A DNA stretch of 64,000 nt from Endomicrobiales bacterium (GCA_963794945.1 CAWCFT010000018.1:3479-67478); one strand, 5' to 3'. Counted from the first letter of the stretch, positions 12,611 to 44,400 are shown. Notes: generated from the letters alone by a model not told the origin. Translations and numbers: made by a program.

Positions 12611-12642
12611 GGGCTGTATATTGTTTTAAAAAATTGGGGGCT

Positions 12643-19856: not shown

Positions 19857-20113
19857 TAGTTGAGATTCTACCAAAGTCGGCGGGTTATGTCAACGTTGGC
19901 GCGCTCGGGATCAATTTATTCCCTAAAGGGTATTTCCAAATTAATACTTTGGGGTTGGTCATAAAAAGATCCGCCCCTACGGCTCTGCGGACAAGCTCCA
20001 GACATCGCAGCCTTCTTTGGATTTGAGCCTTCCACTAAGGAAAGGTTCCGCCAAGGCGGATAAACTCCACTCAAAACACTTTTTATCAAGTTAATCGCTC
20101 GCTCCTATATAGA

Positions 20114-20271: not shown

Positions 20272-20763
20272 TTGCCTGAAAGGAACTATTTTTTGACCTT
20301 GAAATTCCTCAATTTATTCGTTTGCCTTATAACAATTCTGCAGATCACCGCCGCGGGGGTCAGTATATCTCCCGCGCGAGCCGGTTCGTGTGCTCTTTTG
20401 GGCACATACACGGCCGATTGCGAGCGCGTCAACGATTTTGTCGTTTCAACCTCTCCTCTTGGCGAACAATTCAAATGCGCGGCACCTGTAAAACCAAACG
20501 CTGATATTTTCTTTGCCATGCCTGAAATACGTAAGGCAAATGAACAGGCCCTGAAACAGTTCAGGCTTCCTTGCGTTGAGGCAAATTCATTCACCTGCAG
20601 TGAGGGTTTCGTGCTGCTGGACAAAAAATGGTCAGGCCCGCCGGGCCGGTCTTCTCCTCCTATTGCATATTTCATTTTGTTCGCTATAATACTCGCGCTG
20701 AGCAATTTGCCTGCGCCTGTTTCTTGCTTTGCTCGTTCGGTAAACCGCCCGGCTAGACGTTGA
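20272..20763 (+). CDS. Small exported Cys-containing protein with a C-terminal hydrophobic helix, upstream of giant gene B
   Basis: The start is uncertain: TTG at 20272, or TTG at 20293 preceded by AAAGGA. The protein has a hydrophobic N-terminus (LKFLNLFVCLITILQITAAG), 7 Cys, and the tail ..GPPGRSSPPIAYFILFAIILALSNLPAP..RR. It has the same architecture and position as 11980..12480. Confidence 0.55.
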   Translation: MPERNYFLTLKFLNLFVCLITILQITAAGVSISPARAGSCALLGTYTADCERVNDFVVSTSPLGEQFKCAAPVKPNADIFFAMPEIRKANEQALKQFRLPCVEANSFTCSEGFVLLDKKWSGPPGRSSPPIAYFILFAIILALSNLPAPVSCFARSVNRPARR

Positions 20764-20831
20764 AGCCGGGTTTTTTATTTGCTGAGGCAAATAACCCGCC
20801 GATGAGGCGGGTATACTGGTACAAGGGCTTT
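20748..20831 (+). promoter_or_regulatory. Structured leader upstream of giant gene B (homologous to the A leader)
   Basis: H1 is cccggct/agccggg (20748-20770) followed by T6 (20771-20776). H2 is atttgc-tgag-gcaaat (20777-20792). H3 is cccgcc-gatga-ggcggg (20795-20811). The strings cgggtttttt(t)attt, aaataacccgccga..aggcgg.tata and tacaag are shared with A. Confidence 0.55.
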
Positions 20832-20912
20832 ATGAACTTCAACAAATTCATTTCCATTATCACAACGGCCTGCTTCCTGGTGTCGTTTATAGCGTCGCCT
20901 GCTGTGCAGGCG
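20832..20912 (+). other. Sec-type signal peptide (or signal anchor) of B
   Basis: MNFNKFISIITTACFLVSFIASPAVQA|MQA; the core ITTACFLVSF is identical in A. Confidence 0.6.
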
Positions 20913-22238: not shown

Positions 22239-22300
22239 ACCCTAAGGAAATAATCGTTACAATTACAGGCGGTTTTCACACCAGGGAGCTCCAGCGCCTG
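21022..22300 (+). other. Conserved N-terminal domain shared with A (unassigned)
   Basis: LVINIQDLHCHAEVQKNI..KNVLVEGAAGDVDTSW..LTGAEYY..IIVTITGGFHTRELQ, collinear with A 10385..11675. Confidence 0.4.
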
Positions 22301-25300: not shown

Positions 25301-26515
25301 AAACAATCCATACTGAGCAGTACCGGGCAAGCGCTTAAAGCCATAGCCCGCGAAGTTGTGCTCTGGTACGGAAAATTCTATCAGTTGTCTATGCCGAAAC
25401 AGTTCCAGGGCTTGCTGCCCAAGCCCTATAAGCCGCTGTACATCATGCAGGAAACAACCGGCAAACAATACGAACCACAGAAAGATTTGCTTAAACAATT
25501 TATCGAAAATAATGCGGAAAATCTCGCATTGCCGCTGCGAAAACTGAAATATTTCAGGACGGAATTCAGCATTTCTGGTGATGGGGTAGTCAGCGATGTT
25601 CCGGAAAGAATATCTTCCTCAACAAGACGGCCTAACACAAAAATATTAATCCGCTGGCAGGAATTCAGCGGTGGAAAAAACTTCTGGATGCCGGCGCCTG
25701 ACGACCGCGAAATGGCCGCTATGGCCACCGCGAATAATGGCGAAAGCTATACCGGCGTGCTATGGCAGGGAAGCTCACAAGATGAGCTGTATCTTGTCCT
25801 AGTTCCGGTCTCTGAATATTTTAAAGCGGGTTATAGCCTGTCTACCGCGACATTAAGATTGATCTATGAAACTATACTCAGCTTGGAACGCCGCAGAAAG
25901 GACGGTAATCAAATTGAGATCTCAAATAAGGAAAAAGAAGGGTTCGCCCACGCACTAGACTCATTGGACAGGCTTGGAACGCGCTGCTACACAGTCAATT
26001 TCAACGAAGAAAAGAAAGCAATTATCAAACAAATTGACAATGAAACCCTTTCGCATGTAATCTACGAAACAATTATCAAACCTACTAATGATAAAGAGAT
26101 GGAAAGATTATCCGAATTGAGTTCTGACCCTGCTATTCTACAACTGCGCGGCCCCGGCAGTGATGAGGGAGACGTGCTGGGAACTATTTTAGAACCCCTG
26201 CTAAACAGCAAACTGACAGCCGGCCAATTTAAACGTACATTCGATAATATTCACAGGGCAATGTTCCGTAATTTCATAATAATGGAGCGAAAAGAAAATT
26301 ATACTATAGCTATTATTATGATTAAAGAAATCTGCAATTCGTTAGATATGCCAGTTGAATTGCGCAAAAAACTGTCTAACCTGATGATGGGGATATTCTT
26401 CGATCAGAACGGTAAAAGCCGTGATGTTATAGTGCAGACCGCTGCTATGAAATATGCAGCAAAGAAGCTACAGCAGAGACAATCCATATCGTGGCGCATA
26501 AAACAGAACGCTTAA
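22157..26515 (+). CDS. Giant gene B, segment 2 (rest of the shared N-terminal region, HExxH peptidase-like domain, HAD-like domain, repeat X1)
   Basis: 1452-codon ORF overlapping segment 1 by 82 nt. ..KEIIVTITGGFHTRELQ.. matches A ..SEIVVIVTGGFHTQGLK.., which is uninterrupted in A. Confidence 0.9.
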   Translation: MANCIKCPSAGEENPSCTDVTASLPRLNPKEIIVTITGGFHTRELQRLLQEKKVSCLTVTPNVSKGTEESNAIYMHLASQQAAVLNNPQLRPSSAAAKTINSNALQLAIESVQSGNAKLEAVANALWSYALTTADLNAVKDEIELYLQSNSISGSASIDAKAEAIVVTWKDVSGQSRTITISKNAEFGSLTLSSRAHSLLNDILPSLKAGEQAEKTAVGSFVLPVESMVAMGSLIVEVLASLELSLAADSLVTGDGLIYEISHNEELQKLLEKQINIDMQKLGQLPDWLQRALAVRGKARQGIAAELSKEDQSALMKALLSIQPVYDLLVSLNATRVIDSRQAKPDTGLKNGNVKKSNFYNYIRGGFVEEKDLPITDLQKDTINMLAKQAGITINGLENISWKEAHRVETLLKILPQNHLNRVKKVNYIVKILNPLVSGWTDFASKTINIVAKKRFNHDYGEVFVHELGHKVDTSPYAIKIIQSLMDFLLTCALYWVVMRVIFTGDQMSFHNAAFDIVSVFVITAISYIKSKIKASIGRKMVNTNSRISEYAATNDRENFAENYAYYVIFGGEFRRLAGTSAKLAKQYQKMKKIFNGIEYTRNENDDIVILEKNSENTVLPAEDKGMGLQELTKASDLAVSAQPDASQAPAAKGRPRSAPAGSQRYLHRLIDVLKLLQDEKLTKDRFLEAYYNFENLCSSARKDYSENMFLYRRAEVFKTFRVFTNPETLWDNTVAASIRASAENSIQSLQKELSAMEADTGTAMPRESIFDGLEETPNIRPVLAANKPVIAIMDVHGTLIQSSWKVAYEQVYFKLTGKRPPAQWILEKVWNKPDNEVAAMLSTQTGRPASEILDLINKNKSLVKSKSVPPALPGTLELVKALKEQGVTVKIVSNTPGKIVINQLEKAGFLNYISRDDIFYNDQPASKYFHRAKIIQNIITQNPGFNIVYFDDSFREISEISKQFGKRMTIFGVPDGKGIESENNRVELIKSGAHYIVLRKQGFPVEDILRWLDKAPKTISPADNNIIESQPGQEIEQHTTATQILTQKQSILSSTGQALKAIAREVVLWYGKFYQLSMPKQFQGLLPKPYKPLYIMQETTGKQYEPQKDLLKQFIENNAENLALPLRKLKYFRTEFSISGDGVVSDVPERISSSTRRPNTKILIRWQEFSGGKNFWMPAPDDREMAAMATANNGESYTGVLWQGSSQDELYLVLVPVSEYFKAGYSLSTATLRLIYETILSLERRRKDGNQIEISNKEKEGFAHALDSLDRLGTRCYTVNFNEEKKAIIKQIDNETLSHVIYETIIKPTNDKEMERLSELSSDPAILQLRGPGSDEGDVLGTILEPLLNSKLTAGQFKRTFDNIHRAMFRNFIIMERKENYTIAIIMIKEICNSLDMPVELRKKLSNLMMGIFFDQNGKSRDVIVQTAAMKYAAKKLQQRQSISWRIKQNA
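23280..23960 (+). other. HExxH zinc-metallopeptidase-like domain with two hydrophobic segments inserted
   Basis: GEVFVHELGHKVD (HELGH at 23552-23566), then the hydrophobic segments IIQSLMDFLLTCALYWVVMRVIF and AAFDIVSVFVITAISYI (about 23596-23745), then SEYAATNDRENFAENYAYYV. The HExxH...E-x-F-A-E order resembles MtfA/M90-type zincins. Confidence 0.5.
24518..25159 (+). other. HAD-superfamily hydrolase-like domain with a variant motif I
   Basis: Motif I is VIAIMDVHGTL (DVHGT at 24539-24553; the canonical form is DxDGT). Motif II is KIVSNTPG. Motif IV is IVYFDDSF. Confidence 0.55.
25487..26510 (+). repeat. Protein-level repeat X, copy 1 (shorter than X2/X3)
   Basis: LLKQFIENNAENLALPLRKLKYFRTEFSISGDGVVSDVPE..YTGVLWQGSSQDELYLVLVPVSE..LGTRCYTVNF..LRGPGSDEGDVLG.. 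aligns with X2 and X3. Confidence 0.8.
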
Positions 26516-26534
26516 AACCGTTGCCCGCGAAATT

Positions 26535-28259
26535 GTGCTTGGCTATGAGAAATTTTACGAATCCCTGCCGGGATCTTTCCGGGATATGCTGCCCAAGCCG
26601 TACAAGCCGCTTCATATAGTCCCGGAAGAACGCGAAATATTCCCAGTTTCATATAATACGCAGGCGGTAGGTTATGTACCGGTAATCCCTCCAAACGCGT
26701 ACAACGCTCTTTCTGATTCTGTCTTTAAAAGAACAATTGACGGCCTGATGCGGGAGATCAATGACCCGTTCAGTGAACTTGGAAGAGAAAGGCAAAGTAT
26801 AATCACTAAAAGCGGCTTATCTCTGGAAGAATACAAAAGATTCATGCTGTGGCAGGGAAGGCAAAAGGGTATCCGCGGAACCAAGACTTTTTCGTATGTT
26901 GGCGGGTTTAATTCATTCAGGCCGTTCGCTGAATCCGAAGCTATTACCGATGTATATTCAATGGGGCTTGAATATTTTGGAAATGCAACAGATTTAATTG
27001 GAGCTTGCAAATCAAATTATACCGGAAAGGCCTATGTATTGTCAGGAATGCAGTATGAAACATATGATCCAGTAAATCAATACCGTTATCATAAGGCGCC
27101 GGGAATCATGGCGATCGCTAAGATCATTTCGTGGCTGGGTGGGAGTATAGAGGGCCTGTATTATTTTGACATAAATGAGAAAGGAGAGTTCGGTTTCCTT
27201 AACAAAGACGAAGCCATATCCGGCGACAAGCACAACGCGGTAATTGAATTTACCGTTGGCGGCACAACAAAACGTTTCTGGTACACACAGCAAGACATTT
27301 ATACAATGACAGATAATTTTAAGCGCTATATGGGCAGAGTCGAGTTCGATAATTTTCTGATAACCGGACTAAACGGCCTTTTTATTTACATACTTCTAAA
27401 GTCTATGGGTGAACATTCAAAAGCGACTATAGAGGAACAGATGGCTCCCGCGGTCAGGAATAACGCGCTTGTAACAACAAACGCTTCCCGACCCTATGGC
27501 CGCGAACCTAATCCAATATGGCAAAAGGGGTATCCGGTACAGGTAATACCTCTTGAGCCCGGGCAGAAGTACGGTTACAGTGATGGAAATGCAGAACATG
27601 AAAATGCAGAACGTGGAGGAAATATATTTTTCGGCAATGCCGAAGGCCTGGTCGGCTCATCCTGGCGGCCGGCTGGTAACGATGGCAACATTTTCAGCGC
27701 CTTAAGCATAGCGGCAGAAGAGGCGCTCAACCTGACCGGCACCGCACTGGAACAGCAACTGCAAAACATATCCGTTGAACTGGGAATGCTTGCAACCGAA
27801 CATTTTACCCCAAACGCATATATAGGAGCGCTCAAACAAACATTTATTGAAAAAGGCCGGGCATTCGGTATAAACTCCGGTAATATTATTGTCAAGCCCA
27901 TCACGAAGTTTGAGCAGTTCAGGGACGCTGACGGCGGCATCCGGCTTTCAGTTTCGCGCCTTGCGCTGGAAAATGGAAAATACGTGCTTTATATACATCA
28001 GGGTTTTTTAAATGCCTTGTTTTCAATGAGTGATGAACAACAAAAGACAATATGGGAGCAGTACAAATGCGGCCCTCCGGAAGCCTTCGCGGTAGAAGAA
28101 CTTCAGGAATTAGCTGAGATACAGAAATTGGTCCAGCAAGGCACGCCCTTCGATAAAGCCTACGAGCAGTACCACGCATTTAACCCGCATAATGATATTT
28201 TCACTATTCTTAGCCGCGCGTCTCGCGAAAAAAGAAACGCTAATATTAAAAAACCATAA
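26535..28259 (+). CDS. Giant gene B, segment 3 (repeats Z1 and Y1)
   Basis: 574-codon ORF. Its frame is already open upstream of the called GTG start (LKTVAREIVLGYEKFYESLP). That stretch matches LKAIAREVVLWYGKFYQLSMP, which precedes X1 inside segment 2. Confidence 0.9.
   Translation: MLGYEKFYESLPGSFRDMLPKPYKPLHIVPEEREIFPVSYNTQAVGYVPVIPPNAYNALSDSVFKRTIDGLMREINDPFSELGRERQSIITKSGLSLEEYKRFMLWQGRQKGIRGTKTFSYVGGFNSFRPFAESEAITDVYSMGLEYFGNATDLIGACKSNYTGKAYVLSGMQYETYDPVNQYRYHKAPGIMAIAKIISWLGGSIEGLYYFDINEKGEFGFLNKDEAISGDKHNAVIEFTVGGTTKRFWYTQQDIYTMTDNFKRYMGRVEFDNFLITGLNGLFIYILLKSMGEHSKATIEEQMAPAVRNNALVTTNASRPYGREPNPIWQKGYPVQVIPLEPGQKYGYSDGNAEHENAERGGNIFFGNAEGLVGSSWRPAGNDGNIFSALSIAAEEALNLTGTALEQQLQNISVELGMLATEHFTPNAYIGALKQTFIEKGRAFGINSGNIIVKPITKFEQFRDADGGIRLSVSRLALENGKYVLYIHQGFLNALFSMSDEQQKTIWEQYKCGPPEAFAVEELQELAEIQKLVQQGTPFDKAYEQYHAFNPHNDIFTILSRASREKRNANIKKP
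26680..27689 (+). repeat. Protein-level repeat Z, copy 1
   Basis: VIPPNAYNALSDSVFKRTIDGLMREINDPFS..FMLWQGRQKGIRG..FNSFRPFAESEAITDVYS..APGIMAIAKIISWLGGSIEGLYYFD..HNAVIEFTVGGTTKRFWYTQ..FDNFLITGLNG.. Confidence 0.85.
27690..28205 (+). repeat. Protein-level repeat Y, copy 1
   Basis: IFSALSIAAEEALNLTGTALEQQLQ..IVKPITKFEQFRDADGGIRLSVSR..KYVLYIHQGFLNALFSMSDEQQ..CGPPEAFAVEELQELAEIQKLVQQG..AYEQYHAFNPH. It shares an identical 27-nt run (gcagaagaggcgctcaacctgaccggc) with Y2. Confidence 0.9.
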
Positions 28260-31200
28260 CACCGGAAACAATATGGGGCTAATAACTGGCGGACAAAATG
28301 ATGACATTTTAAGCCGTTGCATAGAAAATAACGGAGAAAACCTCTCGTTTCCTTTTTTAAAGAAATTGCTTTATTACATGACAGGTTTTTCTATCGCGGG
28401 AACGGGCGCCGTCAGCGATGTCCCCGAAACAATTAACAACATTCCTTCACAGATAAAAAAAGAGGATGCAAGAATAGCCCTGTTTTGTCAAACACTGGAC
28501 GGTAAAAACACATACGGCATGCCGACGCTTCAGAATATGGCAACTGCCGGTGAAATCCTTAACAGCAAAGAGCAGTGTTACGCTGGAGTTGTTTGGCAGG
28601 GAGAAGAACGGAATGAATTATATATCGTTGCGGTTCCTGTTTCTGAAACAAATATCTACAACTTACAGCTGGGGATTCTTGGCCAGTACTTGATAACTAT
28701 TGCAAAATTTGAGAGAACGCAGAAAAATATGAGCTCAACTGAAATTTCAGCCGTCAAACAGAATATATTCGCGGCTGCTTCAAGCGTATTGTCACAAATG
28801 GGCACCCGCGCTTACTCTCTTACAATTGACCCGCAAAACGGCACGGCTATAAAACCTTTTCCGCTGGAAAGCCTCGTTAGTGTTATTTACGAGTCAAGCG
28901 TAAGGCAGTCTCTCATGGGAATGTTCAAAAAGATGCAAGAAAGCACTTCCGAACAAGCGCTTTCAAAACTCCAGGGCCCTACCGCGGATGAAGGCGATGT
29001 GCTGAGCGTGATGCTGATTAATTTTACCAGAAACAAAGATCGTTTATTGGAACAATCGTGCTATCGTACATACAAGGAAATCGTGGATGACATGTTCAAG
29101 CAATATCAGTATTTTGAAATTCATGCGTATTACGCTTACATTGCGCAAATTGTAGCCAAGCACTGTGAAAAATCTGATCTGCCCGCGAATTTAAAAAAGC
29201 AATTTAAAGATATTATCCTGTCAACGTTCTTTGATAAGAACGGCAAAGCATTGAAGCCTTATCTCGCGGTAGCTCCAGAGTATTATGTTCTTAACAAATT
29301 GGCCGAGGCGGATATACTGGTTTTAAGAGAACGTGTTAAAACGCTTAAAGGGCCCACTCTCAGGTCAGGCCAAATATTAAATGTTCTTGAGATACTTGAC
29401 GAGATGGATAGCAAGGACCTGCAAAAAGTCATTATAGTATTAGAAGACGCAATGATATGGATAGATTTTCTGAGCATTGCAGGAGACAGTTTTAATGTCA
29501 ACATGGATGTGATGCTCCCAAACTGGTGCCTGCAGTATTTTATAAAAAACGGCACGGACATAAACAGTAACAACCTGCAGACTTATGAATATGCCATATA
29601 TGCAACAGCAAGACTTATTGCTGCCGTGCGGTATGATGAAAATAACCACAAACGCAGCCCTGAAGGCCTGGAAACAATACTCAGCTATATAAAGCTAAAA
29701 GCCAGATACCAATTAATAGCACAGCAACAAAAGCAAAACAGCGGCAATTCAGATAATTTATTCAGCGCCTTAAGCGTAGTAGCAGAAGAGGCGCTCAACC
29801 TGACCGGCGGCGCGCTGGAACAGGAACTTCAGAAAATATCTGTCAAAATAGGCAGGCTTTTTTCCTGGCATTTTGCCGTAAATTCACACGCGGAAGCCCT
29901 CAAACAGATGTTTATTGACAAAGGCCGGGCATACGGTATAAATGCTGATAATATTATTATCAAGCCCATCACAAAATTTGAACAATTCACTGACGCTAAA
30001 GGCAAAACCAGGCTTTCTGTTTCACGCTTTGTGCCGGAGGACGGCAAGTATGTGCTTTACATACACCAGCGCTTTCTGGATGCCCTGTTTTCAATGACTG
30101 AAGAACAGAAGAATGATATTTATGAGCAATACCACTGCGGCCCTCCGGAAACCTTCGCGATAGAAGAGGTTCAGGAATTCGCGGAAATACAGAAATTAGT
30201 CCAACTGGGCGTGTCCTTCGATAAAGCCTACGAGCAGTACCACACAGCTAACCCCCACCACAATGTTTTTACCGAAACCGCTTTGCAAACAGCGGCAAAG
30301 CAGATAGACGTATTGAAGCGGTGCATAGAAAATAATAAAAATAACCTGGCTCTTCCATTAAGAAAACTGCGGTATTATTCAACCGGTTTTTCTATTTCTG
30401 ATTCAGGCGAAGTCAGCGATGTACCCGAAACAGTTAACGGCATACCCTGGCAGATTGATATACCTGACGCAAGGGTAGCCCTGTTTTGGCAAAAACTGGA
30501 CGGCAAAGATAAATTCGGCATGCCGACACCCGCTGATATTTTAACTGCCGCTGGAAGCCTTGCGGGCAAAGAGCCGCGTTATGCGGGAGTTGTTTGGCAA
30601 AAGGAAGCTCAGGGTAATTTATATATCGTTGTAGTTCCTGTTTCCGCAAACAATAACTACGAAAGCGCGCTGAGAACGCTTAGCAAATACCTGTCAGATA
30701 TCGCAGCTTTTGAAGGACAAGAGAAAGTAATTAATTCAGCCGATCCCTTCCCTGAAGAGCAAGATGCATATATGCTTGCCAGTATGCTACTGTCGCAAAT
30801 GGGCGCCCGGGCCTACTCTGTTACGATTGACCCGGAAAACGGCGCGGCTATAACCCCCATGTCACAAGAAAGCCTGGTGCGCGCTTTTTACAAACCAAGC
30901 GAGGAACAGACTGACTCAGAACAACCCGATAAGAGGCAAACAAATATTTCGGAAAAAACTCTCTTTAACCTTCGGGGCCCGCACACTGACGAAGGCGATT
31001 TACTGGGTGTCCTGCTGCTTAGTTTTACTAAGAATACAGGCCTATTGCTGGAGGAACCGTGCTTTGTAATTTACAAAGATATCTTGACGGACACGATAAA
31101 ACAAAAAATATATATTGACATCCACGAAGACTATTCGTCCGTCGAAAAAATTGTAGACAGGCGCTGTGATGAATCCGTCCTGCCGGCAAATTTAAAAAGG

Positions 31201-37200: not shown

Positions 37201-40200
37201 ATTAAAGATCACGAACCCGTTGAGATAGATGGTTCCATAATTGAAGTGCCGGGCAAAGCCCGCGCTAAGATAACAGTCACAACTACTATAACAATTTCCC
37301 AAGATATATCGTTCGTTCAGATGTTGAGTCTTGTAACCGCGCTTTATCAGGATATGCTCGACAACAGCCGGGAGAAGAGCGCACACTACAGAGAGCTGCT
37401 GCGCGGAAAGATCAAAGACGTTGAAAACATAGCGAAAAATATTATTTACGCTGCAAATTATCTTGAAACTTTGAAATCCGTATGGCCGGAAACACTCGGG
37501 CTTGATACCGGTAAGTCAGCTGAATTCACAGGGTATCTAGACCAAATGATAAGTGGTTTCCGTAAGCTTACTAAAGGATACAAAATACGATCGGCAGATC
37601 CTTTGCAAGCGCAGAAGGAGATAGCCGAGAACTGGCTTGGCGTTGACCAGGCCTGGCTAGATTCCATTATAAAACGTTTCCCCAAAGAAAATCGGCTGGG
37701 AGCTGTTAAAACTCTGTTTGCCGCGAATCAGAGCCGATGGGAGCGCAGCATCGCTTACGAAATGGCCGCGCCAGCCCGTGAACTTGATGCCGCTGTATTG
37801 GAAAAAGGCGGCAGGCTGCTTGATACGATAAAAAGCAAGCCGTCACTAACACGGAGCATAATAGCATTGATTTACGGTTTATTTAAGCCGGGATATAAAA
37901 TGCCTGAAACCTTGCTCGAGGAGATCGATGAAGCGGTTGCCGATAAAACCAGAGGTATGGATAAAACCAGCCCTGCGTTCGCAAAAACACTGATGTCTAT
38001 TGTTGAGAACAGGGTGCACAAATATTATGATATGTTGCTTTTTAGCGGCAGCGCATTCAATAGTTCTAGTTTGCGCCTGTTTGCGGCAGAGCTTGGCGTT
38101 AACCCGCAAGTCCTTGCAAAGGTGTATGAAATATCCCCGTCACGCATTGTTGAAACGCGGCATATGGCATGTATTATGCAAAACTACCTGTGCGGCAGGA
38201 TACTTCAGCAAAAAGGATTTCAGGTGTACTGGGCTAATGTACACGAAGACGCAAACAGTGAACAAATTGTTCATTCCGTTATACTTGCAAAGCTTCCAAG
38301 CGGTCTTTACAGGATCATCGACGCTACCGCTATTAAAGGTTCGGGCGAAATTTCAGCGAATTATCTCGCACCCGGTGAAGTTGAGCAGAGGCTTAAAGAA
38401 TCCCCGGTATTTTCTAAAACACTTAACATCAACAGCCGGTCTCTGCATCACTTAATAAGTGTATTTGCTTTTGAGGAAGGCGCGCGTACAACTATTTATA
38501 ATAACCTTGGGCTGGTAATCAAGGCTCAGAATAAATTCTCGGAAGCCGAAGCGATATTCAAAAATACCAGGATAAATAACGATAATTTCGAGGCTTCTTA
38601 TAACCTCGGGAATTTATATTTCAACCGGGCGCGCTTCGATGAGGCTGAAACTGCCTACAAAAATTCGTTAACAGTGTATCCCAAATTTGTTGGAACATGG
38701 AACAACCTGGCTGCTGCGCTGGACGAACAAGGCCAGCCCGATGCAGCTTATATTGCAAACAGTTACAAGTATCGCTGTATAAACGGAGAACTAATTGATA
38801 TTAAGAAGGCCTTTGCCGAGATCGATAATGCAAAGGAGAAAACTCTCCCCGAATTTTCTGCGCCGGATAGTGACGATAATTCACGGACTGGCAAGACCAG
38901 CTCATTTTTTGGCGTTGCCAAGAAGGCACTAATGTACATCTCATCCGTGTTCGCTATGCTGGCGTTTACGGTGCATATATCTAACAACCACATTTTCGAA
39001 ACGACAGTGCCAAACAAAACAATGCCTGCGCTGATAAAAAACACTGCATCTAAACAAACTGCTGCCGTTTCCACAATTAACGAAAGAATTAATTCGATCA
39101 ATGCCACTTCTTCAAGCGCAGGCCGGTCACATATAAATCAGCTGTTTTTACACCCAGCCCCGCCCCAATATTTCGCGGACACCTTACCTCGCCAAATGCT
39201 TGCATATTTTGCCGAGCTTATGGACCATGTTCAGTTCATCTTCGCTGAAAACAATGAGCTTCCAGCCTGCGGTTTCATCATTGAAGAACACTCGCCGATC
39301 GAAATAGACGGAACTATAATCGATATGCCTGGAAAAGCCCGCAGAAAGGTCACCGTTAACACCACGATCACAATATCTGATGATATATCATTTGTTCAGA
39401 TGCTGGGCCTTATTACAACGCTTTACCAGCAAATGCTTGACAATAGCCAGGGCAAGCCAGAACAATATAAACAGCTTCTGCATGACAAATTAAATAATAT
39501 CGATAACATCGCAAAGAATTTTATCTATGCCGCTGAATATCTTGACACTGTTAAAAGTTCCTGGCCAGAAAAACTGGGCCTTAACACAACTGAAACCATC
39601 CGGTTTGATAATTACATTGAATATGTTATAAACGGCCTGCGCAAACTGGCTGGAGGTTACGAAATTGCACACCAGGATTCGCTTGCTGTTAAAAAGGCAG
39701 CCGCTGAGGCCTGGCTGAGCATTGACCAGAACTGGCTTGACAGCATACAGAACCGTTTCCCCGAAGATCCGGCTAAACGCTTGGAATTTATTATGTCCCA
39801 GCTCAACGCAAAACAAGACGCCTGGGCCCGCGAAGCCGCGGACGGGCTGGCCTCCCCAGCCCGTGAGCTCAATGCCGCGGTTATGCAAAGAGGCGGGAAC
39901 CTGCTGTTAGACAGCCTTAAGAGTAAAGCCGACCCGGCCAGAACGCTTATACAAGAGATCGATATTAAGATCAAAGAGTTCCAGCCAACGGATCCGGAAT
40001 ATACAAATAAGCTTATATCTATCGTTCAGGACAATGTCAAGCCTTACTTCGACAAGACTCTTTATGATAACAATCCCAAAGCATTCAGCGAAAGTTTACA
40101 AAAGTTATCAACGGATCTCGGTATTAGCCCTCAAACGCTCGCGCTTTTGGGTGAAATATCCCCCACGGAAATTACCGAAACAAACCACATGGTATGTGTG

Positions 40201-41355
40201 ATGAAATCGTATTTATGTGGCCTTATATTGGAGCAATATGGTGTGCCTGTTTACTGGCTGGATGTAGTGAAAACGGTAACAGATGCAGAGGAAGTTCATG
40301 TTAGTATACTCGCCAGGCTTCCAAACGGCCTTTACCGCATAGTGGACGCCGCTTTCCCGAAAGGGTCGGGAGAAGTGCCTGAGCAGTATTTAACGGCAGG
40401 AGAAGTCGAAAAACTACTTACAAAATCACCCACAGTAACTAAAACGCTCGATATTAACAGTAAATCGCTCCATCACGTAATAAAGATCTTTCGGTCTTTT
40501 GAAGCCGGCGCGCGCGGAAGCGTTTATAAAAATCTCGGTATCATTTTTAATTCGCTTAACAGGTATGCCGAGGCAGAGAAAGCCTTCAGAAAAGCCTTGG
40601 ATACCGATTCCCAGGATTTCTTGTCTTGGAGCAGGCTCGGTTCCTCGCTTTTACGGCAGAATAAATTTGCCCAAGCAGAGGACGCATTCAAAAATTCTCT
40701 GAAAAACAATCCTGGAAATATTAATGCCTGGAACAGGGTTGCGATCGCTCTATTAAATCAAAATCAATCCGTTGCAGCGCAGATAGCGCGCGATTGTTGT
40801 GACCGTTTATTGAAAGGCGAACAAATTGATATCAATAAGGCTTTTGCCGAGATCGACGCGGCAAAAAAGAAAGTATTTATTTCCGGACTTGGCTTTAACT
40901 TTGACCTTGAAGGTTATCAGGCCTTCCTAGGCGCCCTGGGCATCGGCCTTGACGTTACCGCGGCTGGCTTTGCGCAAGCCGTCATCAAACAATTCACAGG
41001 TGATAACGGCGCCGATATCGTTACTCCCGAAAATGCTTCGCCTGAAGGAAAGCAGGCTCTTGATAACGCTGGCAGGCTTTCTGTTGAACTATCCGGATAC
41101 CTAAAGTCAAAGAATATCTCTTCCACCGCGCGCGTCGTTGTTACAAAAGGCGATAATACCTTCGTTAAATTCGGTAACCGCGTCTGCGGTATGCCGACAT
41201 TCCTTCGTAAAGCTGATGACGGCTCTTTAACGCTATATATACACCAGGAATTCCTTAATGCCCTGTACGCTGAGCAGGCGAGACACGCTAAAGAAAGGGC
41301 TGCCGCTTCTTCCAAGAGGCGATATCATCGCCCAGTTCGTTGGCGAAGAAGTTGA
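28192..41355 (+). CDS. Giant gene B, segment 4 (4387 codons). Holds repeats X2, Y2, X3, W1, Z2, W2, the SpoT-type HD domain, V1, V2 and a degenerate Y3.
   Basis: Uninterrupted 13.2 kb ORF overlapping segment 3 by 68 nt. The Y1-to-X2 junction repeats the in-frame Y2-to-X3 junction found inside this ORF. Confidence 0.92.
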   Translation: MIFSLFLAARLAKKETLILKNHNTGNNMGLITGGQNDDILSRCIENNGENLSFPFLKKLLYYMTGFSIAGTGAVSDVPETINNIPSQIKKEDARIALFCQTLDGKNTYGMPTLQNMATAGEILNSKEQCYAGVVWQGEERNELYIVAVPVSETNIYNLQLGILGQYLITIAKFERTQKNMSSTEISAVKQNIFAAASSVLSQMGTRAYSLTIDPQNGTAIKPFPLESLVSVIYESSVRQSLMGMFKKMQESTSEQALSKLQGPTADEGDVLSVMLINFTRNKDRLLEQSCYRTYKEIVDDMFKQYQYFEIHAYYAYIAQIVAKHCEKSDLPANLKKQFKDIILSTFFDKNGKALKPYLAVAPEYYVLNKLAEADILVLRERVKTLKGPTLRSGQILNVLEILDEMDSKDLQKVIIVLEDAMIWIDFLSIAGDSFNVNMDVMLPNWCLQYFIKNGTDINSNNLQTYEYAIYATARLIAAVRYDENNHKRSPEGLETILSYIKLKARYQLIAQQQKQNSGNSDNLFSALSVVAEEALNLTGGALEQELQKISVKIGRLFSWHFAVNSHAEALKQMFIDKGRAYGINADNIIIKPITKFEQFTDAKGKTRLSVSRFVPEDGKYVLYIHQRFLDALFSMTEEQKNDIYEQYHCGPPETFAIEEVQEFAEIQKLVQLGVSFDKAYEQYHTANPHHNVFTETALQTAAKQIDVLKRCIENNKNNLALPLRKLRYYSTGFSISDSGEVSDVPETVNGIPWQIDIPDARVALFWQKLDGKDKFGMPTPADILTAAGSLAGKEPRYAGVVWQKEAQGNLYIVVVPVSANNNYESALRTLSKYLSDIAAFEGQEKVINSADPFPEEQDAYMLASMLLSQMGARAYSVTIDPENGAAITPMSQESLVRAFYKPSEEQTDSEQPDKRQTNISEKTLFNLRGPHTDEGDLLGVLLLSFTKNTGLLLEEPCFVIYKDILTDTIKQKIYIDIHEDYSSVEKIVDRRCDESVLPANLKRLLKEIILSTLFDKNAKALEPKVRANAWVYVQNKLAEADLRILRERIKILKGPSVKSGKMLNVLNALDAMDNFDIQKTNVILSQAKDLLDILQNKYGNTFNNSVEDTLKLWCIQNSKISSAAGIDNNFEAHFDAAIIFAKLIIAVWYDENNTKRSPEDMQTILSYLQIKGRLQLISQQHSKEQVKENEQGQDTSNHLGIGLEAIIWAAQGILTIMPGVEQSALTAVELAKSIIRGAVIVSNSGGFARESTYTLDQIVPELARDIEYYNTLCPVNGLRLSKVKVLESKSDYIATNDSLGFASMETLAFDEETMTVKTADNKGNLKTLTDRLRHEFNENMAMNIEGSVQFAALNYFLVKSHVAKPHMPRGNLSGEELINCWHACESDIAGNQDEYRELFKNDKDLEAIERLIAFANEDSTKLLKVYKSLSEIIAGLAKSVLAKPVVVDKVEKQPQVFSKYIPTIPPGAFNALTSPEFKKTIDSLTQEVNDPYSKVGIKRQSIIKQSGQPLEKYKKFMLWQGEQKGVRGKGMFSCAGRFNSFRPFAESENITDVYSNGPEYFGNTNDIIEEYSAKYDDRSYILSGIQYETYDEGKAAWPKKAPGIIAIAKIISWLGGAIDGVYYFDVDETGRFSFVNKNETISGSRHNAVIEFTVNGVKKRFWYTQLDAKALTDNNKRYIDRIGFDNFLVTGLNGSIMYADDNGVRDYDDLLKIRSKNTGEQERSKTIIELQMAAAVRNGALVTIDVYKFEGETAYRLCYRGYPVKTILLKPGQNYGYNTGKAGGKIYFLRNAEGLIGSQWRRNDINLNDKPNILRQTLMFLLIPFFAFNSYFPQLKAAPHDTAVTSKLSAAYLYRASAGKAIDWLARGSEYARMKGFLQRYFDIENPAADMQALIKRASRGFDSDMETRAVDLINKMRKAVPDGFVFSKLGAGDFSLLMHILRNPELEILLFDRETLEVYLSENIIGGVPAAQLSNLQMLRIYLISEALSDYAPVSTQDSLARIIYKNMQETDKGNKNGISGRAVFEQGNIGFHEGNLNFGEQGEIFSPDILCALDIDVPDSAAAGISELPRLVIKTLGHPYGYDEVIDVNSLKAAVIISGKDESGQPYSINLGERILSCDENRSAPAEQPEPEEDTTYPAIDHIAATGNHLGIGGEVVLGAVNIITDSILEIFMQLPGAAEAQLTAAQLVQELTDSFIKRTSHEEFYPAKYYLPEELDTKLARDIEYYNSFRPDGGEKLEKISVVESKTGYIAAENGLGFASMENLAFDKNTVIIKTAYNNDRAKTLAMRIRHEINENMARNVAGSVQFTALDHFLAKAHRARDSLSNDELTNHWHECEKDIAGNQDEYKALFKTAQDTIAIDRLISFTLKDLKQLKKSGKSIPKIFAKFIRFFLESRRIELPDEISAAITSKIIDYFDSLKPSVKPPAEMKLGEFADPADLYSAMKAAIAKNAAIKGKSFDFALLDKAYKLVIDEHGTPDQRRGDGRPYYFHPLEIAYYISVDLEKTNQNLILAALLHDIVEDDTSISYDDIPKLFNKDVADIVDDLTHNDNLSKNKGRLYKRLEHINRILTKSNKDSILIKAADRLHNLLTDARAPHPKAGYMDLIETQQWMKFVMRPEVPGPLRRQLLLLLESKLNDQIINEPLSPEAAAATGSTVTNLLPGETADYLQKLTAFADEYQLLRTLIPVKSNENNEIQLASAGGMQWPELTKKLNHFSCQATIIDRNVIAPYEQPGLIDAHSALSRLIGYGVESFDKYRAVYYAAQNTDFLNALKGYTFETFPWQKLWGPYFKEASIAWAVRNLIGTSAAFEEFKVLARDSALIRLINSESRNRRLYFDSEILYVDGVYTIPVASIKPLPAEKIVILTPLGPSSRQVCIEPVLLRLGKFLRERGWNLHVNWGSMPAGYDGFSIAGAQGIFDNNANIPAGNITPAHLEEINRLKNVSEESKGTPYTFQPDFFYPSYFANEMPRAILANFAELMDHVQFAFADSSRLPAAGFTIKDHEPVEIDGSIIEVPGKARAKITVTTTITISQDISFVQMLSLVTALYQDMLDNSREKSAHYRELLRGKIKDVENIAKNIIYAANYLETLKSVWPETLGLDTGKSAEFTGYLDQMISGFRKLTKGYKIRSADPLQAQKEIAENWLGVDQAWLDSIIKRFPKENRLGAVKTLFAANQSRWERSIAYEMAAPARELDAAVLEKGGRLLDTIKSKPSLTRSIIALIYGLFKPGYKMPETLLEEIDEAVADKTRGMDKTSPAFAKTLMSIVENRVHKYYDMLLFSGSAFNSSSLRLFAAELGVNPQVLAKVYEISPSRIVETRHMACIMQNYLCGRILQQKGFQVYWANVHEDANSEQIVHSVILAKLPSGLYRIIDATAIKGSGEISANYLAPGEVEQRLKESPVFSKTLNINSRSLHHLISVFAFEEGARTTIYNNLGLVIKAQNKFSEAEAIFKNTRINNDNFEASYNLGNLYFNRARFDEAETAYKNSLTVYPKFVGTWNNLAAALDEQGQPDAAYIANSYKYRCINGELIDIKKAFAEIDNAKEKTLPEFSAPDSDDNSRTGKTSSFFGVAKKALMYISSVFAMLAFTVHISNNHIFETTVPNKTMPALIKNTASKQTAAVSTINERINSINATSSSAGRSHINQLFLHPAPPQYFADTLPRQMLAYFAELMDHVQFIFAENNELPACGFIIEEHSPIEIDGTIIDMPGKARRKVTVNTTITISDDISFVQMLGLITTLYQQMLDNSQGKPEQYKQLLHDKLNNIDNIAKNFIYAAEYLDTVKSSWPEKLGLNTTETIRFDNYIEYVINGLRKLAGGYEIAHQDSLAVKKAAAEAWLSIDQNWLDSIQNRFPEDPAKRLEFIMSQLNAKQDAWAREAADGLASPARELNAAVMQRGGNLLLDSLKSKADPARTLIQEIDIKIKEFQPTDPEYTNKLISIVQDNVKPYFDKTLYDNNPKAFSESLQKLSTDLGISPQTLALLGEISPTEITETNHMVCVMKSYLCGLILEQYGVPVYWLDVVKTVTDAEEVHVSILARLPNGLYRIVDAAFPKGSGEVPEQYLTAGEVEKLLTKSPTVTKTLDINSKSLHHVIKIFRSFEAGARGSVYKNLGIIFNSLNRYAEAEKAFRKALDTDSQDFLSWSRLGSSLLRQNKFAQAEDAFKNSLKNNPGNINAWNRVAIALLNQNQSVAAQIARDCCDRLLKGEQIDINKAFAEIDAAKKKVFISGLGFNFDLEGYQAFLGALGIGLDVTAAGFAQAVIKQFTGDNGADIVTPENASPEGKQALDNAGRLSVELSGYLKSKNISSTARVVVTKGDNTFVKFGNRVCGMPTFLRKADDGSLTLYIHQEFLNALYAEQARHAKERAAASSKRRYHRPVRWRRS
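28306..29757 (+). repeat. Protein-level repeat X, copy 2
   Basis: ILSRCIENNGENLSFPFLKKLLYYMTGFSIAGTGAVSDVPE..YAGVVWQGEERNELYIVAVPVSE..MGTRAYSLTIDP..LQGPTADEGDVLS..LPANLKKQFKDIILSTFFDKNGKAL.. Confidence 0.85.
29758..30280 (+). repeat. Protein-level repeat Y, copy 2
   Basis: LFSALSVVAEEALNLTGGALEQELQ..IIKPITKFEQFTDAKGKTRLSVSR..KYVLYIHQRFLDALFSMTEEQK..CGPPETFAIEEVQEFAEIQKLVQLG..AYEQYHTANPH. Confidence 0.9.
30307..31779 (+). repeat. Protein-level repeat X, copy 3
   Basis: DVLKRCIENNKNNLALPLRKLRYYSTGFSISDSGEVSDVPE..YAGVVWQKEAQGNLYIVVVPVS..MGARAYSVTIDP..LRGPHTDEGDLLG..LPANLKRLLKEIILSTLFDKNAKAL.. Confidence 0.85.
31780..32520 (+). repeat. Protein-level repeat W, copy 1
   Basis: NHLGIGLEAI..LARDIEYYNTLCPVNGLRLSKVKVLESKSDYIATNDSLGFASMETLAFD..LTDRLRHEFNENMA..NCWHACESDIAGNQDEYRELFK.. 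Confidence 0.85.
32572..33620 (+). repeat. Protein-level repeat Z, copy 2
   Basis: IPTIPPGAFNALTSPEFKKTIDSLTQEVNDPYS..FMLWQGEQKGVRG..FNSFRPFAESENITDVYS..APGIIAIAKIISWLGGAIDGVYYFD..HNAVIEFTVNGVKKRFWYTQ..FDNFLVTGLNG.. Confidence 0.85.
33640..33687 (+). other. Hydrophobic (TM-like) segment after Z2
   Basis: TLMFLLIPFFAFNSYF. Confidence 0.45.
34639..35450 (+). repeat. Protein-level repeat W, copy 2
   Basis: NHLGIGGEVV..LARDIEYYNSFRPDGGEKLEKISVVESKTGYIAAENGLGFASMENLAFD..LAMRIRHEINENMA..NHWHECEKDIAGNQDEYKALFK.. Confidence 0.85.
35578..35990 (+). other. RelA/SpoT-type HD ((p)ppGpp hydrolase-like) domain embedded in B
   Basis: ..RRGDGRPYYFHPLEIAYYI..LILAALLHDIVEDD..SYDDIPKLFNKDVADIVDDLTH..ILIKAADRLHNLLT. 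The H...HD...D order and the ADRLHN motif are characteristic of the SpoT/Mesh1-type hydrolase domain. No synthetase domain follows. Confidence 0.8.
37075..38841 (+). repeat. Repeat V, copy 1 (unassigned N-part, then transglutaminase-like Cys-His-Asp core, then TPR)
   Basis: FFYPSYFANEMPRAILANFAELMDHVQFAFADSS..DGSIIEVPGKARAKITVTTTITIS.. The candidate triad is ETRHMACIMQNYLCGRIL (Cys 38170-38172) .. IVHSVILAKLPSGLYRIIDAT. TPR-like repeats lie at about 38480-38760. The copy ends at KKAFAEIDNAKEK. Confidence 0.85.
38896..38988 (+). other. Internal signal-peptide-like / signal-anchor-like segment preceding V2
   Basis: TSSFFGVAKKALMYISSVFAMLAFTVHISNN: a KK n-region, a hydrophobic core and a small-residue c-region, in frame inside the 4387-codon ORF. 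Confidence 0.55.
39142..40872 (+). repeat. Repeat V, copy 2
   Basis: LFLHPAPPQYFADTLPRQMLAYFAELMDHVQFIFAENN..DGTIIDMPGKARRKVTVNTTITIS..ETNHMVCVMKSYLCGLIL..VHVSILARLPNGLYRIVDAA.. TPR-like repeats lie at about 40520-40790. The copy ends at NKAFAEIDAAKKK. Confidence 0.85.
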
Positions 41356-41400
41356 CGAGCTGTTTGACATCGAGAACCTCTTATCAAACCAACATCTTTC
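41000..41400 (+). repeat. Degenerate repeat Y, copy 3 (crosses the segment 4/5 frame break)
   Basis: ..RLSVELSG..GSLTLYIHQEFLNALY.. then, in the next frame, ..AQFVGEEVDELFDIENLL.., collinear with the Y1/Y2 elements LSVSR / LYIHQxFLxALF / AxEExQExAEIQKL. Confidence 0.5.
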
Positions 41401-44400
41401 TTCTGTTCAGGCTTATTTCCAACACCACAATCAGCGGGAAAACTTTCCTCAAGCCCATAACGGTATCATAACATCTATCGCGGAACAGACCGGCCTTACT
41501 GTCCTGGGTGTTGAAGATAACATCAATAACCAGCCAGGTGGATTCATTAGCGCTGCCAAGAAGGCGCTAATGTACGTCGCCTGCTGCTTCGCAGCGCTGG
41601 TGTTCATGATCAGAATTTCAAACGCTCAAACAAATACAATAACCTTGCCTTATAACAATAATATTGCGCTAAGTAAAGACTCCTTGGTGAAACCGGGCCC
41701 TGCCAATCTTTTCAACTATGAAAATCGGTTGTTCTTGCATCCTATCCCGCCTGGATATTTCGCGGATACAATACAACGCAAGATGCTCTCCTATTTTGCC
41801 GAACTTATGGACCATATCCAGTTTGTCTTCGCCGACAGTTCCGAGCTCCCGGCTTCGGGATTTACAATAAAAGACCATGCCCCTATTATAGTTGACGGTA
41901 CTATTATAGATGTTCCGGGTAAAGCTCACAGGAAGGTCACTGTGACCACTACTATCACCTTATCAAAAGATATATCGTTCGTTCAGATGCTGAACCTCGT
42001 TAGAACGCTTTACCAGCAAATGCTTGACAACAACCAGGGCAAGACTGAACAGTACAAGCAATACATTCAGCAGAAATTAAATAATATCGATAATATCGCG
42101 AAGAAGTTTATATATTCTGCCGATTATCTTGACACTGTTAAAAATTCCTGGCCGAAAGAACTGGGCCTTAATTCGAACGAAACGCTGCAGTTCATAAATT
42201 ACATTGATTTTGTCATAAACGGCCTGCGCAATATGGCTGGAGATTACGAAATTGTTCACCAGGACCAACCGGAAACCAGAACAACAACCGCTGAAAATTG
42301 GCTTGGCGTAAACCAAGATTGGATCAATAGTATTGTGAACCAATTTCCAGGGGATTCTTCAAAGCGTATGCAATTCATTATTCAGCAATTCAATGCAAAA
42401 CAAGATTTCTGGGCCCGCAATGCCGCAGACGGACTTGCCGCCCCCGCGCTGGAGCTTGACGCCGCGGTAATGGAAACTGGCGGGAGGCTGCTGGACGGCA
42501 TTAAAATTTTTGGCGATACATCCGTGATGCTAAGCAATGTAGTAGCCAAAAAAATGAAAGGTATATCTCCATCGGACCCGAAATACACGGATAAAATTAC
42601 GGAGCTGGTGCAGAAAAAAGTCGGGGAATACATAGATACAACCCTGATGAGCAGCCATCCTGAAAAATTCACTGAATTATATAAACAGGCCGCTGAAACT
42701 CTAGGAGTTAACCCGGCCGTAATGGCAATTCTGGGAGAGATATCTCCGGCCAATATAGTCGAAACACAGCATATGGTTTGTGTTATGCGAGCCTGCCTGT
42801 GCGGCAGGATACTGCAGCAGTATGGCATCAGGGTTTACTGGCTGGATGTTCAAGAAAGGGTAACCGGTGAAGAAGACGACCATGTCGCTTTACTTGCGCA
42901 GCTACCGAACGGGCTGTACCGGATAGTAGATGCCGCTGTCCCGCAAGGCGCCGGGAATGTGCCAAAGCAATATATCGCGGCAGGAGAAATAGAAAAACTG
43001 CTTGCAAACACGCCTGTCATTACAAAAACACTTGATACCACCAGCAGCCGGCTTCATCATATCATAAGGATAACCGATTTTGATGCCGGCTTACGGTCCA
43101 GCGTGTTTAACAATCTTGGCATTGCCCTTTCCAAAATGGGGCATCACAGTGAAGCCGAGCTGGCTTATAAAAAATCTTTGGAGATTAACTCCATTAACGC
43201 TTCCGCGTTGGCAAATTTGGGGCTAGCATATTTTCATATGGGGAGGCTCACAGATTGTGAAAATTGTGTTAAAAAAGCGGTTGAGATAAACCCGCGGTTT
43301 TATATGGCGTGGTATAAACTGGCTGTCGCGCTTTTCGGCCAGCAGCGATATGCCGAATCCGACCAGGCACTTAGAAAGTGCCTGGAAATAAACCCTCAAT
43401 TTACCTCATCCTGGAGTAAAATGGTATCGACTCTTAGCGCCCAGCAACAACCCGCCGCAGCAAAAATTGCGGGTAAATATTGCGTTCGATCCATGGCGGG
43501 TGATCATATTAACCCGAAATCAGCCTTTGAAGAGATAGATGGGGCAACAAGCCACACGACGCTGGCAAATATTAATAAACTTGGCATCAATCGGCAGGAT
43601 ATCGATGTTATCGCCATCGCGGCCATGGAAATATTAAACCAGCTGCCGGCAACCGCAAAACTGCAGTTAACCGCTGGTCAATTGGCTCAGGAATTACTTG
43701 AACTGGGAGCTGACATAGCAACAGTAAAGGAGTTTAATTCACAAACCGTTTACAACCTTGAAGACCTTGACCAGGAGCTTGCACGGGATATCGATTATTA
43801 TAACGCTTTTTGCCCGGTAGGCGGGATAAAGCTGACAAAATTATCTGTCACTGAATCATCAGCCGGCTACATAACATTAAAGGACAGCTTTGGATTAGCG
43901 AGCATGGACAGCATTTCTTTCAATAATGATACAGCGAACATAAAAACAGCCAACAACAAGAATAATCCTAAAATACTGACAAACCGCCTCAGGCACGAAT
44001 TCAACGAGAATATGGCCGAGAATATAATTGATTCTATTCAGTATAAGGCGCTTAACCATTTCCTCGGCAAAATACACGCGGCCCGTAACAATTTAAGTAA
44101 TGCTGAACTGACAAATTACTGGCATGAGTGTGAAGTCGACATCGCGCGGCATCAAGGTGAATATAGGGCGCTGGCCAAAACGGGCCAGGAACAGCCCGCG
44201 GCCGAACGGCTTATCGCTTTTGCTAAAATTGATTCAAGGCAGATAAAACTTGCTTACAGGTTTATCGCTAAGATCTTTGTTGATCTGCTCAAGACACTGC
44301 TGCAAAACAAACAGATAGAGCTTCCCGCCGAAACATCAGCGGGCATTGTCCTGATAATTCAAGGATTGTTTACGCAGCATTGGAATAGGTCAAAAACAGA

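Follow-up and report, generated by a model that had tools for sequence, protein, structure and literature searches.

The repeats described here lie in a 64,000-nucleotide (nt) stretch of DNA from an Endomicrobiales bacterium (GCA_963794945.1, CAWCFT010000018.1:3479-67478), which in its entirety is referred to as the window. Five families of protein modules, termed X, Y, Z, W and V, recur over 19 kb between positions 25487 and 44385, and this mosaic is probably the variable middle of one Elusimicrobiota gene of about 11,830 codons that has been split by insertion or deletion (indel) errors or by inactivating mutations. With seven frame changes bridged, the giant gene would run from 20832 to 56334 on the plus (+) strand, from a predicted signal peptide and a conserved N-terminal domain, the head, to a C-terminal domain, the tail. 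The plus strand is unbroken coding sequence, without an intergenic gap, from about 20.7 to 56.3 kb (35.6 kb), and is occupied by eight overlapping or abutting open reading frames (ORFs) in various frames, the longest intact one of which, ORF C, encodes 4387 amino acids (aa). The mosaic itself takes in the end of ORF A, all of ORFs B and C, and the start of ORF D. Three frames are used by these four ORFs, and two of the frame changes (J2 and J3) fall on repeated units; the single reading frame assumed in a preliminary description of this DNA is therefore not what the sequence holds. That the locus is nevertheless one head-to-tail gene follows from the uncut heads of 62 related loci, from relatives in which head and tail share a single ORF, and from the homologous units that are cut in the window.

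The product of the head-start ORF (p20760), together with the first 110 aa of ORF A, is colinear with roughly the N-terminal 580 residues of giant proteins that are 1951-7806 aa long (the P-set, retrieved by an exhaustive HMMER search), including P0002, P0003, P0033 and P0035, and with m9161, the head ORF of a second giant locus in the window, a paralogue on the minus (-) strand. The window head is 44-50% identical to m9161, P0002 and P0003 along its full length, though it is cut by frame change J0. The conserved head is about 550 aa long and carries the motifs IQDLHCH and VTGGFHT, and the head-bearing relatives all begin with a signal-peptide-like segment, for instance MNFNKFISIITTACFLVSFIASPAVQA. 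A pattern scan of GTDB genomes counted at least 565 head-encoding stretches; Elusimicrobiota account for nearly all of the best 80, and a single genome often has five to ten. In none of the 62 related loci does the head ORF stop inside the head; 40 of these ORFs are still open where the fetched DNA ends (up to >3,900 aa), and the other ORFs measure 880-3,840 aa. At the opposite end of the gene, aa 932-1411 of p52030 match aa 1714-2182 of the 2321 residues of L108 and aa 2140-2542 of the 2674 residues of L109 (E about 1e-26), and in both of these relatives the tail is the C-terminal end of a single ORF that starts with the head.

Outside of shared modules, the bodies of the related giant genes are almost wholly unrelated to that of the window gene, the middle of which is greatly expanded between head and tail. 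The minus-strand paralogue is a case in point, as its intact head lies in an ORF of 942 aa and its body in an ORF of 2497 aa with radical SAM and phosphoglucomutase (PGM) domains, and the head alone is common to the two loci; X, Y, Z, W and V are all absent from it. Pfam searches with members of the head family, at E up to 1, returned only noise, and a PDB profile search with the head found no match. The layout of the family, as read from these loci, is a predicted Sec-type signal peptide, a head of about 550 aa and a variable, enzyme-like or TPR body, with a tail in some members, and by the same searches the family is large, multi-copy and specific to Elusimicrobiota.

The frame changes fall at positions that are difficult to reconcile with separate genes. 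Alignments by tblastn of m9161, P0002 and P0003 change frame at J0, within the head, and the continuous Y2-X3 copy switches frame at J2, between ORFs B and C. At J3, between ORFs C and D, a Y module reads LYIHQEFLNALY in the frame of ORF C and then FVGEEVDELFDIENLL in the frame of ORF D. No Shine-Dalgarno-like sequence was seen by eye before the ATGs of ORFs C and D. Besides J0, J2 and J3, the frame changes lie at 26476-26535, 50665-50692, 51017-51060 and 52030-52156. Changes of +1 and +2 are mixed among the seven, with homopolymers at only some. The seven junctions are clearly something other than ordinary gene boundaries. The A6 runs of J2 also raised the possibility of programmed frameshifting, which is unlikely because their geometry is not that of a slippery site and because the junctions differ from one another (+1 or +2, some without a homopolymer).

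Because a full-length self-match hides off-diagonal self-hits in BLAST, repeats were detected by chunked self-BLASTP and by windowed phmmer. Both self-comparisons found three copies of X, two of Z, two of Y plus a partial third, three of W and three of V (E from 1e-34 to 1e-97), in the order X1-Z1-Y1-X2-Y2-X3-W1-Z2-W2-(HD)-V1-V2-Y3-V3-W3, so that the copy numbers, the order and the protein-level homology given in the preliminary description are all borne out. X1 is 31-35% identical to X2 and X3 (E about 1e-34), which are 51% identical to each other; Y1 and Y2 are 69% identical (E 4e-74), the W copies 47-49% (E about 1e-57) and the V copies 46-55% (E down to 2e-97). Residues 4241-4358 of ORF C, a part of Y3, match the Y region of P0033. 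The repeated modules span 180-690 aa, and a sixth repeated family lies just outside the range of the mosaic, with GNAT domains at 44516-44974 and 48095-48559 (+) that are 61% identical, with a ratio of non-synonymous to synonymous divergence (dN/dS) of 0.16.

The arrangement combines a tandem duplication of a [Y-X] unit of about 2 kb (Y1-X2 at 27672-29736 and Y2-X3 at 29740-31740) with dispersed copies of Z, W and V, and Tandem Repeats Finder detected no tandem arrays. This agrees with the earlier view of segmental duplication and reshuffling inside one gene, as opposed to a simple tandem array. Identical runs of 19-27 nt had been reported for the Y1/Y2 and V2/V3 pairs, which is close: the longest run shared by V2 and V3 is 27 nt, and that shared by Y1 and Y2 is somewhat longer, at 29 nt. 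Two other candidate relationships were discarded. A homology of Y and W, suggested by their placement in a MAFFT alignment, received a probability of 0.3% from hhalign, and "LGI(S/G)", considered as a general motif that would mark junctions or cleavage sites, proved to be merely the start of W. V2 and V3, and not V1, share an N-terminal extension (38890-39080 and 41528-41750, +) that includes a borderline transmembrane-like segment (KKALMYISSVFAMLAF and KKALMYVACCFAALV).

Between copies, identity is 31-69% at the protein level and 45-76% at the nucleotide level. The proportions of synonymous differences are 0.50-0.83, that is, saturated or nearly so, and those of non-synonymous differences are 0.18-0.47, with dN/dS of 0.16-0.37 wherever it could be computed. 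The older copies are X1, V1 and all three of W, and within the tandem unit dS is similar for Y and for X (0.8-1.0), as expected from a single duplication event. Saturation at synonymous sites combined with low dN/dS indicates that the duplications are ancient and have been retained under selection, and because the copies diverged under purifying selection they are most likely distinct working domains, as judged from their sequences, and not redundant filler. The mosaic repeats are not an assembly artefact. A repeat order that is chimeric, or copies that have been collapsed or expanded, would be a general concern with any such structure, and was raised as one in the preliminary description; nothing in the sequence adds to that concern, and the copies, at 45-76% DNA identity and with no more than 29 identical bases in a run, are too dissimilar to confuse an assembler. 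Furthermore, flanks and substitution pattern differ from copy to copy, the frame of every copy is open, and base composition is even throughout the mosaic region, so that we regard a chimera as very improbable indeed.

A body built of old duplications could still be part of a cassette system in which variation is ongoing, comparable to contingency loci or the cassettes of polymorphic toxins, with copies that recombined or underwent gene conversion recently. The bodies of related giants are nearly all different while head and tail are common, the same modules occur in other orders and numbers in relatives, and short identical runs of 24-29 nt are present, all of which would fit such a system. 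It is unlikely, however, given that synonymous sites are saturated, that long identical tracts are lacking, and that neither inverted or direct recombination sites nor a recombinase were seen beside the modules; shuffling on evolutionary time scales accounts for the saturated sites and the missing recombination sites better than an ongoing process. The eight ORFs, taken as given, might instead be an operon of separate large proteins with overlapping ends, in which case the repeats would be paralogous domains spread across proteins and not intragenic. A head ORF that stands apart from a body ORF does occur, both on the minus strand of the window and in contig L081. Yet J0 cuts the plus-strand head ahead of VTGGFHT, in a domain that all 62 relatives keep in one ORF, J3 cuts Y3, and J2 parts Y1 from X2 while Y2-X3 is continuous; together with the lack of Shine-Dalgarno-like sequences at the ATGs of C and D and the sharing of one ORF by head and tail in relatives, this makes an operon an improbable arrangement.

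The alternative that carries the most weight is that the plus-strand gene is a real pseudogene, its frameshifts genuine and its mosaic a relic in a genome that is losing genes. Conserved genes nearby are likewise frameshifted: relative to the syntenic metagenome-assembled genome (MAG) L001, the phosphofructokinase (PFK) gene (17925-18847, -) has a 1-nt deletion near 18255 and the gene for a response regulator with an HD_5 domain (18899-19874, -) a 1-nt insertion near 19720, and the second MacB gene is frameshifted twice, at 62120 and 62725. The PFK gene of L001 also has a frameshift, but elsewhere (about L001 1710-1724), several of the junctions lie away from homopolymers, and an independent Logan contig, L082 (ERR11523656_243579), matches 8075-14317 at 99.89% with no indel over its 6.2 kb. 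The density of breaks, about 10 per 64 kb, fits an error-prone assembly as well as a genome with many real pseudogenes, and single-base breaks at this density, with no in-frame stops or deletions noted, are also the signature of error-prone long reads. Moreover, the historic dN/dS between copies is well below 1, and the independent contig covers none of the seven junctions. Thus, decay of the gene is a substantial possibility, though one with less than an even chance of being correct. Look-ups of exact products (TyrRS, ORF B from two starts, the response-regulator fragment, the PFK fragment, the cNMP-binding protein and p20760) brought up no independent contig for the frame breaks, and an exact DNA pattern over the junction of B and C had no match in JGI metagenomes.

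Several observations weigh against a single intact gene with an exported, multi-enzyme product. The longest ORF as sequenced has 4,387 aa, and a single gene requires that seven frame changes be discounted. L082 confirms the stop or frame change between the head ORF and the body ORF of the minus-strand locus, and L081 has a separate head ORF of 687 aa followed by an overlapping ORF of 10,327 aa, from which it follows that some splits may be natural. The tail was found neither in the minus-strand paralogue nor in the giants of the P-set. Export is read solely from the N-terminal sequence and a hydropathy scan, the activities of all domains are predictions, the HAD-like hydrolase scores under the Pfam gathering threshold, and no fold could be recognised in X, Y, W or V. 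As for the origin of the breaks, the observations on L082, the PFK gene of L001 and L081 point towards real mutations. A single Elusimicrobiota gene remains the probable state from which the eight ORFs arose.

Domains were sought with Pfam, NCBIfam and PDB sequence and profile searches, and structures were predicted with AF2 and compared with the PDB by Foldseek. The recognisable domains of the giant gene, by Pfam and NCBIfam, are HAD, RelA/SpoT-type HD, TPR, GNAT, GT2, deaminase and HATPase_c; the three TPR blocks form the ends of V1, V2 and V3. The preliminary description could name no family for X, Y, Z and W, and indeed none of the four has a Pfam, NCBIfam or PDB sequence match, nor did PDB profile searches with X, W and Z produce one; three of the four modules do have relatives, however. 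Z has about 50, including stand-alone proteins of 300-440 aa without a Pfam domain, and is found up to five times in a single protein (five copies in P0001, and in one protein of 7806 aa). W is restricted to giant proteins of Elusimicrobia (twice in P0002, three times in P0003, once in P0035), with invariant H-E..E and W-H-x-C residues, and Y, which is found twice in P0033, is restricted to related giant proteins. For X, none of the searches returned a relative. The non-TPR part of V, which was tested less thoroughly than X, had no relative among the retrieved giants, in the word-indexed search or in the GTDB pattern scan. Neither a 2450-aa query of X, Y, Z and W nor V had a match in a word-indexed protein search, which is a weak negative as this search seems blind to giant proteins: with the head, it returned nothing longer than 1,019 aa though longer head-bearing proteins exist.

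The AlphaFold model of Z, built from 26 sequences, is confident (pLDDT 82, pTM 0.87), and its top 50 Foldseek matches in the PDB are nearly all methyltransferases (PNMT, NNMT, GNMT, FAM86A and Bud23), albeit weak ones (E 5e-3 to 6e-2, TM 0.19-0.33). The YYPFGGFD motif of Z bears only a loose likeness to motif I of S-adenosylmethionine (SAM) binding. We tentatively suggest that Z has a methyltransferase-like Rossmann fold of the class I SAM type. W is predicted to be an alpha/beta domain (pLDDT 70-92) and has no PDB match. In a model of Y2-X3-W1, W is confident and X and Y are poor; no PDB match to this model was better than E 0.3, and weak matches to the DesK histidine kinase were disregarded. 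A Kyte-Doolittle scan of the giant gene product shows the N-terminal signal-like segment and few, weak internal hydrophobic stretches, and no protease domain was recognised.

The body of the gene grew by old segmental duplications, in tandem for the [Y-X] unit of about 2 kb and dispersed for Z, W, V and GNAT, after which the copies diverged separately under purifying selection; it evolves through the gain, duplication and loss of modules inside a constant frame of signal peptide, head and tail. That much, like the frame breaks and the placement in Elusimicrobiota, is shown by the data, from which we further infer that the product is exported and enzymatically active, and what its biological role may be. 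The product may be an exported scaffold for multiple enzymes or effectors, at or beyond the cell envelope, that would display many activities modifying small molecules, along with TPR binding surfaces, outside the cytoplasm. The predicted activities are those of a HAD phosphatase, a (p)ppGpp-hydrolase-type HD domain, acetyltransferases, a glycosyltransferase (GT), a deaminase, a HATPase and the methyltransferase-like Z. The same scaffold role has been proposed, also without experiment, for multi-enzyme giant proteins of Omnitrophota. It is possible, if somewhat doubtful, that the family amounts to a phylum-wide, multi-copy set of exported head-body-tail giants whose bodies are made by shuffling and duplicating enzyme cassettes, many of them (X, V, W, Y and Z) representing new folds or families, in a modular effector or toolbox system unlike the Archaeovorins, with the head as a common device for export, anchoring or processing.

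Giant genes as such are a known phenomenon from preprints. Omnitrophota, Elusimicrobia and CG03 are described as groups in which they commonly occur (PMC12057145, with reference to West-Roberts et al.), and Elusimicrobia are listed among the phyla most prone to proteins of >5,000 aa (PMC11573180). Nielsen and Lui, in the part of their text available, distinguish multi-enzyme proteins of a methyltransferase/HATPase_c/GNAT/HAD/HD group and of a GT/PGM/radical SAM group, and report that 65% of multi-enzyme giants repeat at least one Pfam domain, a repetition they ascribe to ancient duplication (10.64898/2026.06.07.730766). This description is a good fit for the domains predicted in the window gene and in its radical SAM/PGM paralogue. 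As in their class 1, unrelated domains tile one polypeptide (HAD, GNAT, HD, HATPase_c, methyltransferase-like, GT and TPR, with PGM and radical SAM in the paralogue), many distinct Pfam families are present with none dominating, domains are repeated at least twice, the repeats have diverged in DNA in a manner that implies ancient duplication, and a signal peptide or membrane association is predicted. The minimum of 10,000 aa for class 1 is reached, at about 11.8 thousand aa, only with the eight ORFs joined. Unlike class 1, which is from Omnitrophota, the window gene belongs to Elusimicrobiota, most of its repeated modules are without a Pfam family, and it is defined by head and tail domains that go unmentioned in the available part of that source.

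The Archaeovorins, as outlined in the available text of 10.1101/2023.11.21.568195, contain GT, methyltransferase, hydrolase, peptidase, radical SAM, NUDIX, HEAT, TPR and SecA_DEAD domains and many transmembrane helices. The window gene and its paralogue resemble them in being giant and probably exported, in their GT, TPR, HAD, radical SAM, PGM and HATPase_c content, in an N-terminal region without a known domain, and in a proposed role at the cell surface. In contrast to the Archaeovorins, SecA_DEAD (PF07517), HEAT, NUDIX, glycoside hydrolase and C39/S8 peptidase domains were not found in the Pfam-scanned ORFs, few transmembrane segments are convincing by the Kyte-Doolittle scan, the length is at most about 11.8 thousand aa versus at least 30,000 aa, the host is not a member of Omnitrophota, and the window has no type II secretion genes, the neighbours of the giant gene instead being TolC, HlyD and MacB. 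A likeness to MARTX and polymorphic toxins also exists, in the very large size, the predicted export and the arrays of interchangeable enzymatic effectors, deaminase-like and acetyltransferase-like domains included. However, Pfam and NCBIfam searches found no RTX, adhesin or toxin-delivery repeats and no cysteine protease autoprocessing domain, immunity genes were not recognised, and the predicted secretion signal is an N-terminal one of Sec type, versus the C-terminal type I signal of MARTX proteins. The same scans gave no condensation, adenylation, ketosynthase or carrier domains of nonribosomal peptide synthetases or polyketide synthases.

Also close to the window gene are the head-bearing giants of Elusimicrobia, such as MCB4792719.1 and OGS18066.1 (1951 aa), with which it shares the phylum, the signal peptide, a head of 41-55% identity and one to three copies of W. 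Their bodies are otherwise unrelated to its own; X has no relative there, and none of V was found. The frame of head and tail that delimits the family is apparently undescribed, as neither this family nor the module families are mentioned in the available parts of the giant-gene literature cited, although no literature search was aimed at them. The analysis thus places a concrete, dissected giant multi-enzyme gene in Elusimicrobiota, delimits its family by signal peptide, head and tail, and indicates that such genes grow via old duplications of modules that are kept under selection. It also carries a warning for annotation, because fragmentation into eight ORFs hides one unit and relatives are named for a single embedded domain. 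The head-bearing giants are annotated as hypothetical or, misleadingly, as 6-phosphofructokinase, as is the case for MCB4792719.1 (P0002; 7422 aa, from 'Ca. Liberimonas magnetica'). Another giant relative is annotated as a uridine kinase/anti-sigma factor, and both names seem to be taken from one embedded domain. The coordinates of the features are collected in Table 1.

Table 1. Coordinates of the giant gene, its modules and junctions, and other loci in the window.
Feature	Position	Strand	Remarks
Head-start ORF (p20760)	20760-22238	+	492 aa; ends inside head
Giant-gene start	20832-22238	+	Predicted signal peptide MNFNKFISIITTACFLVSFIASPAVQA and first ~440 aa of head, with IQDLHCH motif
J0	22154-22178	+	Inside head, ahead of VTGGFHT, which is read on in the ORF A frame
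ORF A	22157-26515	+	End of head 22178-22500; HAD hydrolase-like ~24533-25024; connector; X1
Connector	25358-25453	+	32 aa; in ORF A
X1	25442-26476	+	In ORF A
ORF B	26535-28259	+	
Y1	27672-28205	+	
J2 (B to C)	28205-28252	+	Between Y1 and X2; A6 runs 28228-28233 and 28248-28253
ORF C	28192-41355	+	4387 aa; contains most of the mosaic
X2	28273-29307	+	C-terminal extension to 29739
Y2	29740-30273	+	
X3	30265-31308	+	C-terminal extension to 31773
W1	31774-32514	+	Conserved RxRHExxE and WHxC motifs
W2	34633-35379	+	
HD_4, RelA/SpoT type	35602-35991	+	Single copy; Pfam E 3.9e-13; TIGR00691 E 1.4e-22
V1	37006-38847	+	~480 aa with no known fold; TPR repeats ~38524-38751
V2	38830-40899	+	Repeat match 39082-40878; N-terminal hydrophobic extension; TPR ~40522-40836
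Y3, partial	40912-41400	+	Third Y copy; frame change J3 inside
ORF D	41258-50692	+	3144 aa; V3, W3, GNAT, GT2, deaminase, second GNAT
J3 (C to D)	~41285-41300	+	Within Y3
V3	41480-43591	+	Repeat match 41750-43558; in ORF D
W3	43574-44302	+	In ORF D
GT2 glycosyltransferase	45218-45583	+	In ORF D
Cytidine/MafB19-like deaminase (dCMP_cyt_deam)	46541-46987	+	In ORF D
Last three ORFs	50665-51060, 51017-52156, 52030-56334	+	
HATPase_c	~53359-53709	+	Pfam; within the last three ORFs
Tail domain	~54823-56262	+	p52030 aa 932-1411; matches C-terminal ends of relatives
Minus-strand paralogous giant locus	1660-11989	-	Head ORF 9161-11989 (m9161); body ORF 1660-9153
TolC	56763-58091		Directly downstream of giant gene
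HlyD	58174-59166		Downstream of giant gene, beside TolC
First MacB-like gene	59009-61159		Appears intact
Second MacB-type ABC transporter	61194-63149	+	Split over three or more ORFs that differ in frame
Second MacB pieces	61194-62120, 62126-62725, 62751-63149	+	ATPase; periplasmic core domain; third piece

The host is an Elusimicrobiota bacterium by the identity of its TyrRS (74% to an Elusimicrobiales MAG and 66-71% to Endomicrobiia) and by synteny, the order TyrRS, cNMP-binding protein, PFK and regulator being shared with the Elusimicrobiales MAG L001. It is absent from among the GTDB species representatives, and ORF B has no close relative in GTDB genomes. The flanking genes are chromosomal, encoding TyrRS, the cNMP-binding protein, PFK, the response regulator with its HD_5 domain, LpoB and a TolC-HlyD-MacB cluster. 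A phage origin of the locus was rejected, as a phage collection gave no DNA matches and the PHROGs found were of housekeeping type only. Directly before each head gene lies a small ORF of 163-176 aa (20272-20763 on the plus strand, 11980-12495 on the minus strand and 9450-9980 in L081). Sequence similarity among these three is not significant, and homology among them was rejected on that ground; all three are hydrophobic at the N-terminus and again in a C-terminal stretch, which either includes or precedes an 'NLP' motif (SNLPAP, GNLPAE and NNLPGL).

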